From Verrucomicrobiota bacterium (GTDB taxonomy: Bacteria; Verrucomicrobiota; Verrucomicrobiia; Limisphaerales; UBA1096): 43,747 nt of DNA. The first letter of the stretch is position 1, and the number at the start of each line of letters is the position of its first letter. The DNA is taken from the NCBI GenBank assembly GCA_030747605.1, contig JASLKL010000003.1, forward strand, positions 1 to 43,747. The letters are read 5' to 3'. Of the stretch, positions 4,755 to 10,343 are shown in pieces. Position numbers and translations under genes: made by a program. The notes beneath the pieces are model-generated. The model saw only the letters and a list, made by a program, of their open reading frames with translations. It did not search any database and was not told where the DNA came from.

Positions 4755-4823
4755 ATTATTGCCAGCCCAAGCAAATTCAATTTTATCTCGCTTGGCAAAG
4801 CACTTGAACGTTTGAATGTGCAC

Positions 4824-6842
4824 GTGCCCAAAGAGTACACCATTAAACCGTTCCGTTCACCGATCGATCTGAACATTGATTATGAATCAGAACTGAATGC
4901 TCAGCAACTCGCTGCCGTAACGGCTACGCCGGGACCGGCTTTGGTGTTGGCTGGAGCTGGGGCGGGCAAGACGCGTACTCTGACTTATCGTGTGGCATAT
5001 CTATTAGAGCAAGGCATCCCAATTGACCGCATTCTTCTTTTGACATTCACCAATAAGGCAGCAAAAGAAATGATGGAACGAGTACAAGACCTGATTGGAG
5101 ACGACACATCAGGCCTTTGGGGCGGCACTTTCCATTCAGTGGGTCACCGTATTTTGCGACGCAATGCGGAGACGATTGGCTACCCACAAACATTCACAAT
5201 AATGGATCGCGAGGATGCAAAAGACCTGATGAGCCTTGCTATCACTGACGCTGGTATAGACACCAAAGCAGTACGTTTCCCTAAGCCAGACTTGCTTTGT
5301 GATATTCTTTCAATGTCAATTAATACAGGGCTGGATCTAGAGAAGGTAATGGAGGATCGATATTTCTATTTCGAAAGCTTGTCCGAAGACATTTCCAAAG
5401 TACACGCCGCTTATTCCAAGCGCAAACAATTGAATGGAGTGATGGACTTCGATGATCTACTCAACCAGTGGCTGAGACTGCTACAAGAAAGCGAAGAAGC
5501 TCGAGAATATTTTCAATCTAAATTTCAATTCATTCTTGTCGATGAATATCAAGACACAAATCACGTGCAGTGTGAATTGATCGATCTACTAGGCGATCGA
5601 AACCATAATATTATGGCAGTTGGCGACGATTCACAAAGTATCTATTCATGGCGAGGCGCAAACTTCCGTAATGTACTCGAGTTCCCTGAGCGCCACAAAG
5701 GAACACAAGTCTTCAAGATCGAGACAAACTACCGCAGCACTCCAGAAATTCTCAATTGCGCAAACGCTGTCATAGCGGGCAATGCTAATCAGTTTAAGAA
5801 GAAGCTTACACCGGTACGAAAAAGCGGAATGAAGCCGGCACTAGTATCCTGTAATGACGCCAATCAACAGGCTGAATTCATTGCCCAACGTGCACTTGAG
5901 CTTCGCGATGAAGGCATAGCTCTAGAAAATATGGTTGTATTATACAGATCTCACTTTCACGCGCTTGAATTACAACTGGAATTTACCCGACGTAATATCC
6001 CATTCACAATAACTAGTGGCATTCGTTTTTTTGAACAAGCTCACATCAAGGACGTAGCTGCATACCTCAAACTTATTTCCAATCACCAAGACGAAATAGC
6101 ATTTAAGCGCATTGTACTGATGCTTTCAGGAATCGGATCCAAGTCTGCAGATAAACTTTGGAGATCATACAAAACCCGATTAACTGACGAGATTACTACG
6201 CAACCTAGTTTGGCTAAAGTAATCCGAGAAATTTCCGGATTAGCTCCAAAAAAATCCATAATAGGCTGGGAACAATTTGCAGAAACACTCTCTCAACTAG
6301 AAAGTGAAAAAGGCAAAGGGCCAGGACATCTAATCCGCTTGGTCATAGCTGCAGGCTACGAAGATTATCTGCAAAACAAGTTCCCGAACTACTATTCACG
6401 ACTAGAAGATCTCGAACAGGTCGCTGGCTTTTCAGATCAATATGAAACCACAGAGGAATTCCTTAGCGAACTAGCTCTTCTAAGTAATTTGGACACAGAG
6501 TCGAAGAGGGATGCACAATCAGACCCCGAACAAATTCGACTCTCTACTATTCATCAAGCCAAAGGACTAGAGTTCGAAGTTGTGTTTGTAATGATGCTCT
6601 GCGATGGACTTTTTCCCTCAAGTAGAGCAATCGAAAGCCCTGAAGGGGAAGACGAGGAAAGGCGATTGTTTTACGTAGCCGTCACCCGCGCAAAAACAGA
6701 ACTGTATCTTAGCTATCCACTAATGCGCTTCATGCACGGATCCGGAGGAGAAACATTTCAACAGCCATCCCGCTTTCTTAACGAAATTGGAGATGGTCTC
6801 GTGGAAGAATGGAACCTGCAAAGCTTCGACCCATACGGGTAA
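4824..6842 (+). CDS. uvrD: UvrD/PcrA/Rep family ATP-dependent DNA helicase
   Basis: LAGAGAGKT, LTFTNKAA, TFHS, VDEYQDTN, VGDDSQSIYSWRGA, NYRST, TIHQAKGLEF, EERRLFYVAVTRAK. GTG at 4824 preferred over TTG at 4812 (uncertain). Confidence 0.93.
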   Translation: MPKEYTIKPFRSPIDLNIDYESELNAQQLAAVTATPGPALVLAGAGAGKTRTLTYRVAYLLEQGIPIDRILLLTFTNKAAKEMMERVQDLIGDDTSGLWGGTFHSVGHRILRRNAETIGYPQTFTIMDREDAKDLMSLAITDAGIDTKAVRFPKPDLLCDILSMSINTGLDLEKVMEDRYFYFESLSEDISKVHAAYSKRKQLNGVMDFDDLLNQWLRLLQESEEAREYFQSKFQFILVDEYQDTNHVQCELIDLLGDRNHNIMAVGDDSQSIYSWRGANFRNVLEFPERHKGTQVFKIETNYRSTPEILNCANAVIAGNANQFKKKLTPVRKSGMKPALVSCNDANQQAEFIAQRALELRDEGIALENMVVLYRSHFHALELQLEFTRRNIPFTITSGIRFFEQAHIKDVAAYLKLISNHQDEIAFKRIVLMLSGIGSKSADKLWRSYKTRLTDEITTQPSLAKVIREISGLAPKKSIIGWEQFAETLSQLESEKGKGPGHLIRLVIAAGYEDYLQNKFPNYYSRLEDLEQVAGFSDQYETTEEFLSELALLSNLDTESKRDAQSDPEQIRLSTIHQAKGLEFEVVFVMMLCDGLFPSSRAIESPEGEDEERRLFYVAVTRAKTELYLSYPLMRFMHGSGGETFQQPSRFLNEIGDGLVEEWNLQSFDPYG

Positions 6843-6869: not shown

Positions 6870-8459
6870 TCAAGGCTGACCCTTGGTCTTTTTCTTTGCA
6901 GTCTTTTTGCGCCGGCTATTACTCAAATGTCGATTAACAGCATTGAGATACGCCTTTGCGCTGGCTTCAATTACATCGGTACTAGCACCCTTCCCCGTGA
7001 TAAGCTCACCATCTCCGAAATCTACCTTCAAACTAACTTCACCTAGCGCATCCTTGCCTTGAGACACACCACGTAACGCATAATCCTTCAGCCTACCCTG
7101 AGTCTCAGTAAGACGGTCAATTGCCTTAAGTGCAGCATCAACAGGACCATCACCCACCCCAGCATCCTCTAGAACTATATCTTTCTTAGACCGCCCAGAA
7201 GCTGGCTTCCGTAAGCGAACAGTAGCTGTCGGGACGGTCTGATTTCCACTTGTGACGTTAACATACTCCATCAACCAAGTCTCTGGCACCTTAGTAATCT
7301 GGCCATCAACCAGTGCTCCAAGATCATCATCATAAACAAATTTCTTTTTATCGCCGATTTCCTTAAAACGACTAAAGACATTAATTATTTCATCGTCAGA
7401 AAGCTTAAACCCAAGGTGTTTAAGTCGTAGAGCCATAGCAGCCCGACCGCTATGCTTCGTCAATGGCAACTCAGTCTGCCCCCAGCCAACATCCTGCGGA
7501 TCCATAATCTCGTAAGTTTCACGCTTCTTGATGATTCCATCCTGATGGATTCCACTTGAGTGCGCGAAAGCATTCTCACCAACGATAGACTTATTTCGTT
7601 GCACCACAAAACTACTCATACGCGAAACCAGACGAGAAGATTTCACGATCTCATTGGTTTTAATTCCACACTTAATATTCTTATAGTAATCCTCCCGAGT
7701 TTTTAAAGCCATAACCAATTCCTCAAGAGCAGCATTACCAGCTCGCTCCCCGATACCATTCACAGTGCACTCGATTTGGCGTGCTCCATTCTCAACGGCA
7801 GCTAAGGAGTTAGCCACAGCCATACCAAGATCATTGTGACAGTGAACACTGATGACAGCCTTGCCTGTTTTAAACTCCGGAACAGAAGCGTGAAGATGTC
7901 CGATTAGCTCACCAAACTGCCCAGGGACAGCCCACCCAACCGTATCAGGAATATTAACGGTAGTAGCCCCAGCATCAACCACTGCTTGACAAACCTCCGC
8001 GAGAAAGTCTGGTTCAGTTCTAGATCCATCTTCGGGAGAAAACTCAACATCTGCTGTAAGCTTGCGAGCTCTTTTCACACCCTCAACAGCAAGTTTAATG
8101 ATTTGGCTCTGCGCCTTACCAAGCTTAAATTCACGATGCAATTTCGAGGTGGCAAGAAAAACATGTATACGCCCCTTGCTCCCAGCTGGAGCAACCGCCT
8201 TACCAGCAGCTTCAATATCCCCAGGAACACAACGTGCTAAGCCTGCAATAGTTGGCCCCTTGATTTCTTTAGCGATAGTGTTGACAGCCGTGAAATCTCC
8301 GTCGCTGATCACAGGGAATCCCCCCTCAATCACATCAACTTTAAGTCGGGCCAGTTGACGCGCGACCTCAAGTTTCTCTCGCAACGTCATAGAAGCACCA
8401 GGACACTGTTCGCCGTCGCGAAGTGTCGTATCAAAAATAATGATCCGATTCTTTTTCAT
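6870..8459 (-). CDS. leuA: 2-isopropylmalate synthase (with C-terminal regulatory domain)
   Basis: [63 protein letters not shown] at 8459; the track's TTG at 8486 lies in the attenuator U-tract. Confidence 0.97.
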
Positions 8460-8484
8460 ATCTTCATTATATACAAAGGCTAAC

Positions 8485-8518
8485 AAAAAACCCCGAAGCC
8501 TTGCTGGCAGCGGGGTTT
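8485..8518 (-). terminator. Intrinsic terminator of the leuA attenuator
   Basis: Minus strand AAACCCCG-CU-GCC-AGCAA-GGC-UU-CGGGGUUUUUU: GC-rich stem plus U6 tract, ending 25 nt before the leuA ATG. Confidence 0.9.
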
Positions 8519-8555
8519 ACAAATTTTATGAGCACTAGCTTAAACCTCGGCCACC
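8506..8555 (-). promoter_or_regulatory. Antiterminator helix of the leuA attenuator
   Basis: GGUGGCCGAGGUUUA (8555-8541, end of the leader ORF) pairs with UAAACCCCGCUGCC (8519-8506, 5' arm of the terminator) with one bulge and one A-C mismatch, so it excludes the terminator. Confidence 0.75.
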
Positions 8556-8614
8556 TGAACGCTTCCTAAAAGCGCCAGTTCCAGCAACAAAAGTCGTAGT
8601 CTCACAAATAACAT
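8540..8614 (-). CDS. Leucine-rich leader peptide (attenuator peptide, leuL-like)
   Basis: ATG 8614 to TAA 8540 reads MLFVRLRLLLLELALLGSVQVAEV. 9 of 24 codons are Leu, including four in a row (CTT TTG TTG CTG); it lies directly upstream of a terminator and leuA. Confidence 0.85.
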   Translation of the reverse strand: MLFVRLRLLLLELALLGSVQVAEV

Positions 8615-8622
8615 CTCGGCGG

Positions 8623-8651
8623 AAAATATCGACGAGCTACCGTCAAGTCAA
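8623..8651 (-). promoter_or_regulatory. Putative sigma70 promoter for leader peptide-leuA
   Basis: TTGACT (8651-8646), 17 nt, TATTTT (8628-8623), 8 nt, then leader ATG at 8614. Confidence 0.6.
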
Positions 8652-8691
8652 TGGGTTTTTCTTCTTCCAGGAATAGTTCGACTAAATAAGC

Positions 8692-10227
8692 CTATTCGTT
8701 GTCATCTTCAATAGCTTCAGGATCACCAACAAGAATTACTGAGGCTGCCTCACTAGGCTTGGCTTCAAAAAGCACGCTCTCTGGACCCCAACCTGACCAA
8801 CCCTGAATACCTGGAGCATCCAAATCACTATCTATCACCGCAACACCCAAGCCAAATGATACATTTTCTTCAAGAGTCGATACTCCAACTGTTTCCGGCG
8901 CAAACCAAAACTCATAAACGGTCGTGCCAGTAGCAGGATTACCGTTGGCAGGGTCGATCGTTTTTCGGTTTCGGCGTATTACAACATCAAACTCAGCGTC
9001 ACCTTTGATTTGCTCCGCATATCCAATTGGCGGAACAAACCCTGGGGTTGAAAGCATTTTTTTATTATAGGCAAGATCGTTTACCAACTTCCAGTCTGGG
9101 TCTTTCAAGAACACGTCATAAGATAATGCAAAAACAAACTCTCCTAATACTTCATTGCGATCAGCATTAGTAAATAAAATCTTAACAGCGTCACCCTCAT
9201 CAGCAGATTTACCAAAATGGACATGTTGATCATCCTCAACCACCAAAGTAAGCTGTAGCCCTAAAACGTTCCATCCAATCCCTAACTTAATATTGTGATC
9301 CTTTTCTCCCTCCCATTTGCCTTCACCAAATTCGGCAAATTGAGAATATGTAGTCTCACCTGCGATGTAATTAGCCTCACCTCGCTGATCCTCGTCAACT
9401 ATTTCAAAACCAGGATTAGCGACCATTTCGCTTGCCAACCATTCACTAGGAATCCCATCAAGACTGCCATTAACCGGTTTAGCTTCATAATAATCATAAT
9501 GAAGATCAATTCGGTTTATATTTTTGGGTGGCGGCTGTACATAAGGCATCAACCGATAAAACCGTTGTCTGTACTTACTAGTGTTGGTTTCCTTAAAAAC
9601 TAATGTATCAGACGTGAAATCCAAAATCTTTCTCACGCGCCAGTCGATTAAGTTCTCCGAAGAAAGAATTTGAAACTGCCTAGGCTCGATCTTCATTTTC
9701 TTATTTAGAAAGCCATACCAGCCTGGGGCCAAAGCCGTAGCCTCCATTATAAAATGATTGTCCAAATCAAAACGAATGATGCCGTAATAGCTTTTCAGTA
9801 AATCAGCAACATTCGTATGTCCAAAAAATGCTACGCCATCCATGGCAGTCTCGCCTGCTTTGTCTTTTGCATTTATATCCGCGCCGTGAACCAGTAACAA
9901 TTTGACAATGTCAACAAACCCTCCTACGGCGGCATGGTGCAGTGCTGTAGCTTTGTCAAAATCACGATGCCGAACATTCGCCCCAGCATCAACAAGGAGT
10001 TGAGCAATCTCTAGGTTACCATACTCAGCAGCATAGTGCATGGCGGTTTTACCAGTCCAATCATCAATGGTTTCAACATCAGTCCCGGCTGCTATGTGGG
10101 CCTTAACGGTGTTAACATCATTACGCCAACTTGCCGCCGCCCATAGAGGTAGCTCTGGAGCAGCCTGAACAGAAGCTGCCCAAAAAATCAGGAGACTAAT
10201 TAAAATACGACTAAGATTCCCTAACAT
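8692..10227 (-). CDS. Secreted ankyrin-repeat protein with C-terminal CBM9-like (sugar-binding-type) domain
   Basis: Signal peptide MLGNLSRILISLLIFWAASVQA from ATG 10227; about four ankyrin repeats (LPLWAA, GKTAMHYAA, ATALHHAA, GETAMDGV); C-terminal W-x3-GLQLTLVVEDD...GDAVKI...TVYEF...FGLGVAVIDSD resembles CBM9_1-like domains (less certain). Confidence 0.75.
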   Translation of the reverse strand: MLGNLSRILISLLIFWAASVQAAPELPLWAAASWRNDVNTVKAHIAAGTDVETIDDWTGKTAMHYAAEYGNLEIAQLLVDAGANVRHRDFDKATALHHAAVGGFVDIVKLLLVHGADINAKDKAGETAMDGVAFFGHTNVADLLKSYYGIIRFDLDNHFIMEATALAPGWYGFLNKKMKIEPRQFQILSSENLIDWRVRKILDFTSDTLVFKETNTSKYRQRFYRLMPYVQPPPKNINRIDLHYDYYEAKPVNGSLDGIPSEWLASEMVANPGFEIVDEDQRGEANYIAGETTYSQFAEFGEGKWEGEKDHNIKLGIGWNVLGLQLTLVVEDDQHVHFGKSADEGDAVKILFTNADRNEVLGEFVFALSYDVFLKDPDWKLVNDLAYNKKMLSTPGFVPPIGYAEQIKGDAEFDVVIRRNRKTIDPANGNPATGTTVYEFWFAPETVGVSTLEENVSFGLGVAVIDSDLDAPGIQGWSGWGPESVLFEAKPSEAASVILVGDPEAIEDDNE

Positions 10228-10291
10228 TGACCGCGCACCATTTATACAGACTTTAACTACTCGACCAGCGAAATCGCCCAATTCGCAGGCC

Positions 10292-10320
10292 TTGCACCAG
10301 CTCCAAGCTTGGCTTACGTT
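10292..10320 (+). promoter_or_regulatory. Putative sigma70 promoter
   Basis: TTGCAC (10292-10297), 17 nt, TACGTT (10315-10320), upstream of ATG 10344. Confidence 0.35.
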
Positions 10321-10343
10321 CAATCAATTAGATTTTCAATCCC

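Follow-up and report, generated by a model that had tools for sequence, protein, structure and literature searches.

A putative leucine attenuator with an apparently leaderless leader peptide upstream of leuA in Verrucomicrobiota

The question raised by this locus is whether the short stretch in front of leuA, the gene for 2-isopropylmalate synthase, in a Verrucomicrobiota bacterium acts as a switch that senses leucine (Leu). The sequence analyzed, referred to here as the window, is a stretch of 43,747 nucleotides (nt) from contig JASLKL010000003.1 of assembly GCA_030747605.1, and the leader in question occupies positions 8460 to 8651 and is read on the minus strand. The original prediction, made from the letters alone, had described at this place a promoter, a Leu-rich small open reading frame (ORF) and two alternative RNA pairings, and had suggested the logic of leuL/trpL attenuation. 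Based on a comparison with relatives and on a folding model, the element most probably represents a ribosome-mediated, leucine-sensing transcription attenuator of leuA with a leader peptide of the leuL/trpL type, to which we assign a probability of about 0.85; where transcription starts, that the ORF is translated, that the transcript ends at 8485 and that leucine is sensed are all inferred from the sequence. The features of the locus are as follows.

8646..8651, minus strand: -35-like hexamer TTGACT, with TTGACN at the same place in 28/28 related loci.
8623..8628, minus strand: -10-like hexamer TATTTT, separated from the -35 hexamer by a 17-nt spacer and lying 8 nt before the ATG.
8540..8614, minus strand: leader ORF MLFVRLRLLLLELALLGSVQVAEV, 24 codons plus stop, with ATG at 8614 and TAA at 8542-8540.
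8580..8608, minus strand: region 1, the 5' strand of the long 1:2 helix in minimum-energy folds, which carries the Leu-codon run.
8555..8578, minus strand: apical hairpin within the ORF, CUGGCGCUU/AAGCGUUCAG, in the minimum-energy fold.
8541..8555, minus strand: region 2, the putative antiterminator 5' strand GGUGGCCGAGGUUUA, made of the last five codons and two stop-codon bases.
8506..8519, minus strand: region 3, the predicted terminator 5' arm and antiterminator 3' strand UAAACCCCGCUGCC, near-invariant in relatives.
8485..8500, minus strand: region 4, the predicted terminator 3' arm GGCUUCGGGG (8500-8491) and U6 (8490-8485).
6870..8459, minus strand: leuA, short-type bacterial 2-isopropylmalate synthase, 529 codons with ATG at 8459 (NF002086, TIGR00973).

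The predicted terminator at 8519-8491 (AAACCCCGCUGCC-AGCAA-GGCUUCGGGG, -18.5 kcal/mol in a single-sequence fold) runs directly into U6 at 8490-8485, with 20 nt between the leader TAA and the hairpin and 25 nt between U6 and the leuA ATG. Since these 25 nt leave no room for a promoter of its own, leuA is expected to be transcribed through the terminator. Region 2 pairs with region 3 through 6+6 base pairs around a small internal loop. The parts on which the original prediction had been built, namely the 24-residue ORF with nine Leu codons of five types, the hairpin inside it, the antiterminator of 8555-8541 with 8519-8506 (12 base pairs) and the GC-rich terminator with its U6 and leuA 25 nt later, were all recovered at the positions listed. 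A simple terminator scan of the region did not list the leader hairpin because of its internal loop. The leuA product scored 734 bits against NF002086 (cut-off 532) and 678 bits against TIGR00973 in NCBIfam, and the gene is monocistronic because the next gene, a helicase gene at 4812-6842 on the plus strand, is convergent with it. A relaxed motif scan of the 2.53-Mb assembly found the leader only once in the genome.

In the window sequence alone, only the Leu content rises above chance. Leu accounts for 9 of the 23 non-start leader codons in comparison to 9.5% in the 724 long ORFs of the genome (binomial 1.5e-4, uncorrected), and the nine codons, at leader positions 2, 6, 8-11, 13, 15 and 16, are of five types (TTA x2, CTA, CTT x2, TTG x2 and CTG x2). 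What raised the feature as a whole above chance was its conservation in relatives. Orthologues of leuA were searched for in 41 genomes, consisting of the window's own, 24 of the same genus and 16 from other families of the same order, and were found at 66-100% identity; after two loci without a 5' end were dropped, there were 28 loci with a 5' end and upstream DNA, 21 from the same genus and 7 from other families of the order. The results showed that all 28 loci carry TTGACN, a 17-nt spacer, a -10-like hexamer, a start codon 6-8 nt further on, an ORF of 18-24 codons and the same terminator, with a total leader length of 121-134 nt.

The Leu enrichment of the leader ORF is specific to its reading frame. 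For 46 distinct ORFs, Leu made up 323 of 1025 internal codons (31.5%) in frame 0, in comparison to 68 and fewer than 50 of 1071 codons in frames +1 and +2, respectively. The ORF is 23 or 24 codons long in 39 of the 46 and within 21-24 codons in 45, and the Leu positions vary synonymously, with CTA, CTG, CTC or CTT at codon 6 and TTG, CTG, TTA, CTT or CTA at codon 10. This pattern in frame 0 fits selection for Leu codons in one frame, as judged from sequence comparison. The C-terminal residues (AVGF, AVVV, VAEV) are set by the RNA strand of region 2. We also observed that a CGA arginine (Arg) codon between Leu codons (CUN-CGA-CUN, peptide L-R-L) recurs in the leaders of many families and is found at 8582-8599 of the window, and that in several leaders CGACUGC and the GCAGUCG of region 2 are perfectly complementary; this motif may simply be the core of the 1:2 helix.

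To look at the RNA structures, RNAalifold was applied to the alignment of the 28 leaders and returned three helices, namely the terminator, the in-ORF hairpin and a 4-base-pair core of the 1:2 helix. In the terminated-state structure 93.7% of the cells are paired and two-sided changes occur in 12 of 21 pairs, in line with the covarying helices to be expected from the original prediction; among the controls, none of 500 shuffles reached any of the five measures and slid strands paired at 37-54%. The terminator is 98.3% paired over 27 distinct sequences, with 5 of 11 pairs changing on both sides, the conserved in-ORF hairpin, possibly a pause hairpin, has two-sided changes in 5 of 6 pairs, and the four base pairs of the 1:2 core are likewise kept with two-sided changes. 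For the antiterminator (alignment columns 63-68/109-114 and 72-77/101-106), 91.3% of the cells are paired in comparison to 37-57% for slid strands. Column 68, in region 2, has region 1 as its partner in one structure and region 3 in the other, and the region-3 column that it pairs with, 109, is paired with region 4 in the terminator; standard base pairs are maintained through the changes in all three cases. The duplexes of region 2 with the terminator arm were further compared among 24 representatives of different families, for which the native pairs averaged -17.9 kcal/mol in comparison to -15.4 kcal/mol for swapped ones, and the native mean was reached by only 1 of 10000 permutations.

The alternative structures were then placed in a model of a ribosome masking the RNA. 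When the full leader, masked by a ribosome, was folded to equilibrium, the terminator always won, and this was rejected as a model of the switch. The RNA was therefore folded before the 3' arm is made, that is, to the end of the terminator 5' arm, with an assumed footprint that extends 15 nt upstream and 10 nt downstream of the A-site codon. Without a ribosome, the window leader adopts the long 1:2 structure (-26.9 kcal/mol) and the arm is free in this model. With the A site on codons 1-16, which include all nine Leu codons, the last being codon 16, 10-11 of 12 arm bases are in the antiterminator, and A-site positions 19-25 leave the arm free again. Over 86 distinct leaders, with the antiterminator state defined as at least 70% of the arm paired, this state was predicted at 402 of 598 Leu codons; a ribosome placed at the stop codon gave it in 2 of the 86 leaders and left less than 40% of the arm paired in 50 of the 86. 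The model thus reproduced the claim made earlier that a stalled ribosome frees the antiterminator and that a ribosome at the stop covers it; for the folding alternatives as such, the claim held with the masked RNA before completion of the terminator, and at equilibrium the terminator was favoured throughout.

Taken together, the proposed mechanism would proceed as follows. Transcription would start at the promoter 8651-8623, probably no more than some 2 nt from the first base of the ATG at 8614, and the 24-codon ORF would be translated from a leaderless or nearly leaderless RNA, as the spacing suggests. When charged tRNA-Leu is scarce, the ribosome would stall on one of the nine Leu codons (2-16) and cover region 1, such that region 2 would pair with region 3 once this is made, no terminator would form and transcription would read through into leuA. 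When leucine is plentiful, the ribosome would reach the last codons and the stop inside region 2 and cover it, and the 3:4 hairpin with U6 would end the transcript 25 nt before leuA. In the absence of any ribosome, the 1:2 pairing would be expected and the terminator would also form.

How far the leader extends beyond the order was examined by a survey anchored on leuA. A positive region was one with an ORF of 10-45 codons having at least 4 Leu and at least 20% Leu, whose end lies -10 to +70 nt from a hairpin of -9 kcal/mol or better abutting T4 or more. In the class, 41 of the 69 genomes with a full-length short-type leuA were positive; with the 28/28 loci of the order, this bears out the conservation of Leu-rich small ORFs upstream of leuA on which the original prediction depended. 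All sampled members were positive in 11 families (by our own family labels, f71 13/13, f66 9/9, f70 7/7, f73 3/3, f68 3/3 and six single-genome families). For long-type leuA, described below, 11 of 33 upstream regions in the class were flagged, of which the 7 from the window's order are convincing and the other 4 weak; all 7 same-order genomes with a long-type leuA were positive, for example VNRNLNLNLLLNALLLCRAAVGF. In the other classes of the phylum, 18 of 40 genomes were flagged, for example MIHQILNLRALLLLLLEGRSRVRV, the count of 40 leaving out two full-length and three partial leuA genes. Controls on the reverse complement gave 1/69, 0/33 and 2/40, respectively, and putting Ala, Arg, Gly, Ser or Val in place of Leu under the same criteria gave at most 3/69. 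On this sequence survey, the putative leader is widespread within the class and also occurs elsewhere in the phylum.

A search of species-representative genomes with the pattern of the conserved terminator returned at least 121 stretches, at least 80 of which were loci with DNA. Among the matches listed, 21 loci had a Leu leader with a leuA-like gene downstream, 9 of them orthologues of the window leuA at 73-96% identity and 12 the other isopropylmalate synthase, and 59 loci of many phyla, without a leuA neighbour, were plain terminators, seven of which had chance Leu-containing ORFs unlike the leaders. Nearly all of the 21 listed loci are labelled Verrucomicrobia, -ota, -ales or -iae, in keeping with the PVC-type genome named in the original prediction. 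The two labelled otherwise, L055 and L092, are metagenome-assembled genome records titled Bifidobacteriaceae bacterium and Candidatus Acidoferrum species; their leader and long-type leuA are almost identical to those of Verrucomicrobia-labelled records, and on this similarity the contigs are probably mis-binned or mislabelled. A covariance model built from the alignment of the 28 leaders was also tried on 150 genomes of the phylum and set aside, as it found only the window's genome and eight weak matches, each an ordinary terminator that follows an unrelated gene and lacks a Leu ORF. It was too insensitive because one genus is dominant in the alignment and the filters were strict, and the gene-anchored surveys were used instead.

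The same leader is found before two types of isopropylmalate synthase. The second, long type is the enzyme whose N-terminal 180-186 residues best match NF002991/TIGR00970, and the leaders of long-type genes are 73-79% identical in DNA to short-type leaders of the same order, in comparison to only about 30% identity over about 140 residues between the long- and short-type proteins. Among 121 genomes of the class, 72 carry the short type over the cut-off, 34 the long type and none both. We consider it an even call whether the leader is older and more stable than its gene, such that one homologous leaderless attenuator was kept throughout the order and, more divergently, in much of the phylum, the enzyme gene behind it being exchanged between the two types in the meantime. 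If true, this would be a cis-regulatory RNA outliving the non-orthologous displacement of its target gene, or a leader carried to a newly acquired gene. The leader before two unrelated leuA types offers a tidy case for studies of leader and gene exchange. The short and long types alternate between sister families within the window's order. In addition, the regions upstream of six long-type leuA genes (L240, L241, L255, L261, L244 and L242, from families f21, f69, f75 and f68) are without the leader and the U-run terminator and share CGACUUA in a short ORF that reads ...L-R-L-(S/T) and then a stop or a continuation, after which comes a long GC-rich hairpin without a U-run, e.g., ACGCACGAUC...GAUCGUGCGU. 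These regions may be a second type of leucine leader, recalling the terminator-less leuA leaders of Actinobacteria.

The genes around the leader were also compared. The gene 5' of it (8692-10323, minus strand) encodes a 543-amino-acid ankyrin-repeat protein with weak matches, far under the cut-offs, to ankyrin-repeat effector models of NCBIfam. This neighbour is present in 21 of 21 same-genus loci, being 46-91% identical beside the leader in all 20 of the others, and in none of the 7 loci of other families; since it is confined to the genus, the leader travels with leuA and not with the neighbourhood. The genome has a second LeuA-family gene (C259:2239-3792, minus strand; 29% identity to leuA; N-terminus MKNLVEIYDT), before which no Leu leader was found and which may encode a citramalate or related synthase. 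A second, shorter leuA-like gene, covering about 378 of 494 profile positions and below the cut-off, lies 18-25 kb from the full-length leuA in five genomes of family f22 (G103, G118, G124, G127 and G160).

The leader ORF is probably leaderless or nearly so, as judged from the spacing. It lacks a Shine-Dalgarno sequence, which is also the case throughout the order. Beyond the order, the distance from the -10 hexamer to the start is 6-10 nt in 14 of 41 further leaders under a strict pattern, and most of the others show, by eye, TTGNNN-17-TANNNN followed by about 9 nt. The leaderless appearance noted in the original prediction fits the conserved 6-8 nt spacing and the missing Shine-Dalgarno sequence. 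In marine or seawater metatranscriptome assemblies from at least two studies, contigs identical to the window were found within 7800-8760, and a third run differed at one position; one identical contig (8329-8557) bridges the terminator into leuA, and another contig covers 8174-8435. The contigs are short, of low depth, unstranded and without transcript ends, and may include DNA, such that they neither prove nor refute the start, termination or read-through. They point to a seawater habitat for the organism and suggest that RNA libraries contain the locus.

Several observations weigh against the reading as a leucine attenuator. In the window alone, the 167-nt leader fold is not unusually stable (z = -1.07, with 29 of 200 shuffles folding as well), and the pairing of native region 2 with the terminator arm (-15.0 kcal/mol) is equalled by 163 of 2000 shuffled versions of region 2. 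The promoter TTGACT-17-TATTTT of the original prediction is present with its position kept in 28/28 loci, and the match itself is at chance level in the single sequence, with 3 promoter-like sites in the surrounding 4.3 kb in comparison to 6.9 in shuffles. A GTG start is seen in many relatives, three of the 28 loci among them, and locus L023 has ATA at the start site with a GTG 12 nt further on; leaderless initiation in E. coli strongly favours AUG. An identical metatranscriptome contig at 8511-8701 reaches upstream of the proposed start and promoter; provided that it derives from RNA, part of the transcription runs in from the upstream gene. Two-sided changes are confined to 2 of the 12 antiterminator pairs owing to the near invariance of region 3, which would be expected of a strand that has two alternative partners. 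In equilibrium folds the terminator (-18.5 kcal/mol) is favoured over the antiterminator (-14.6 kcal/mol) under any masking, and the switch must therefore be kinetic, as in trp, with the choice made before region 4. Without a ribosome, the arm is less than 40% paired in only 38 of the 86 modelled leaders, and the 1:2 structure is thus not generally predicted. Finally, under the fixed criteria no leader was found before leuA in 28 of the 69 class genomes (f22 0/12, f24 0/9, f67 0/2 and five single-genome families). In the nine f24 genomes another ORF of the same strand precedes leuA by 14-67 nt, and leuA therefore seems operon-internal there.

These points have to be set beside the other explanations of the locus. 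The switch could work by RNA alone or through a protein, a tRNA or a small molecule, with the ORF untranslated and its Leu codons a by-product of the 1:2 pairing. The complementarity of regions 1 and 2 does constrain the Leu run in part (CUG/CUU-rich opposite a G-rich strand), and region 2 dictates the C-terminal residues of the leader; such a switch is nonetheless highly improbable, as the start codon is fixed 6-8 nt past the -10 box in 28/28 loci, the ORF keeps 21-24 codons in 45 of 46 cases despite widely differing sequences, Leu is enriched only in frame 0 with its codons changing synonymously, no T-box or other Rfam family matched even at E-values up to 10, and the conserved location of the stop codon, within region 2 or immediately ahead of it, has meaning only for a ribosome that arrives at that point. 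A ribosome-mediated attenuator that senses general translation capacity or another signal, such as the branched-chain amino acids together or the stringent response, instead of leucine specifically, is improbable to the same degree. It would account for the Val, Ala and Arg codons of the ORF and for the CGA Arg codon that recurs in the Leu run of many relatives, and in the model the antiterminator results wherever in codons 1-16 the ribosome is slowed. Leu dominates by a wide margin, at 31.5% of codons, the same survey run with Ala, Arg, Gly, Ser and Val gave at most 3/69, and the regulated gene, coding in two unrelated versions for the first committed step of leucine synthesis, carries the leader before both; all three speak for leucine.

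In their short N-region, Leu-rich core and small residues towards the end, the peptides resemble signal peptides, which would suit a hydrophobic micro-protein with a function of its own followed by an ordinary leaky terminator. We regard this as even less probable, considering that the peptide is poorly conserved between families apart from its Leu richness and the C-terminus dictated by the RNA, that the ORF always lies between promoter and terminator directly before leuA of either type, and that the genome has a single copy of the leader. The weak single-sequence statistics and the one RNA-library contig that extends upstream of the promoter would be compatible with a chance ORF beside the terminator of the upstream gene, with no regulatory role. 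Conservation in dozens of families with differing upstream genes, near-zero reverse-complement controls and the lack of space for a leuA promoter after the terminator make this very unlikely, the least probable of the four.

Leader-peptide attenuation is textbook biology for Proteobacteria, and in its proposed logic the element resembles leuL/trpL of enterobacteria. Both have a short ORF with a run of cognate codons, the overlapping helices 2:3 and 3:4 and, less consistently in the folds of relatives here, 1:2, a stop from which a ribosome that terminates there would keep region 2 covered, a U-run terminator of the intrinsic type ahead of the first gene of the pathway, and a terminator stabler than the antiterminator, with a kinetic choice between them. 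The verrucomicrobial leader differs in having no similarity in sequence or covariance model, in an ORF without a Shine-Dalgarno sequence that starts 6-8 nt after the -10 hexamer and is apparently leaderless, and in an extra conserved hairpin within the ORF. In leuL the Leu codons form a tight run and the operon controlled is leuABCD, whereas here nine Leu codons of five types are spread over 15 codons and the gene controlled is a monocistronic leuA. A cmscan search with Rfam 15, over 8000-9200 of the window with E-values up to 10 and over 12 related leaders with E-values up to 1, found no leader or cis-regulatory family over the leader, the Leu_leader and T-box models included, as the original prediction had left to be seen; because the covariance model does not match, the element is not a member of the curated enterobacterial Leu_leader family.

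Outside Proteobacteria, leader-peptide attenuation has been predicted or shown in Actinobacteria, Firmicutes and Deinococcus (PMC8079986, PMC1262725, PMC5794164, PMC4007540), and its mechanism as in leuL/trpL is summarized in PMC4007540 and PMC8079986. The leuA leaders of Actinobacteria (PMC8079986, PMC1262725) likewise have a Leu-rich peptide upstream of leuA and a leaderless transcript, LeuL1 of Streptomyces lividans being a leaderless leader peptide upstream of leuA (PMC8079986). As described in Seliverstov 2005 (PMC1262725) and PMC8079986, the actinobacterial LEU element has no typical terminator and is proposed to act through a pseudoknot or by sequestering the leuA Shine-Dalgarno sequence, whereas the leader studied here has a conserved terminator with a U-run and a clear antiterminator, with no evident homology to the LEU element. 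According to PMC1262725, the conserved pseudoknot of the LEU element has a base stem joining its Leu-codon run to the leuA Shine-Dalgarno box; here the partner of the Leu run is region 2 instead of the leuA ribosome-binding site. In addition, the actinobacterial leuA is of the long type and the window leuA of the short type; a control search with NF002991 was positive only in Corynebacterium.

In Deinococcus deserti, leaderless leader peptides, 14 of them predicted to act in attenuation, have the start codon (AUG/GUG) at the transcription start, as proposed here, in front of amino-acid and tRNA-synthetase genes (PMC4007540); the phylum and the genes are different, and the starts were mapped experimentally there and are predicted from sequence here. 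Because it is documented in S. lividans and D. deserti, the leaderless leader arrangement is not new in kind. The ilv-leu operon of Staphylococcus aureus also has a Leu-rich leader peptide for branched-chain amino-acid genes and differs in belonging to a Firmicute and in being also under CodY, according to PMC5794164. The leucine attenuator appears to be undescribed in Verrucomicrobiota, in line with the original prediction, which was aware of none there: full-text literature gave no leucine attenuator from this phylum, the cross-phylum survey of Lopatovskaya et al. 2010 (Mol Biol 44:128) lying outside its coverage, and no relevant paper on attenuation in Planctomycetes, and the main text of Naville and Gautheret 2010 (PMC2965389) contains neither 'Verrucomicrobia' nor 'leuA'.

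What is known of the attenuation mechanism itself is unchanged by this leader, and its significance lies in the organisms that carry it. The arrangement hints at 70S or leaderless initiation and at a coupling of transcription and translation close enough for attenuation. It is also a target for annotation: by means of a covariance model or a simple rule, the small ORF, so far unannotated, could be labelled in many genomes. To our knowledge, almost no gene regulation has been characterized in Verrucomicrobiota, which have few cultured models, and for this phylum the putative attenuator of leuA would provide a well-defined and testable cis-regulatory switch.

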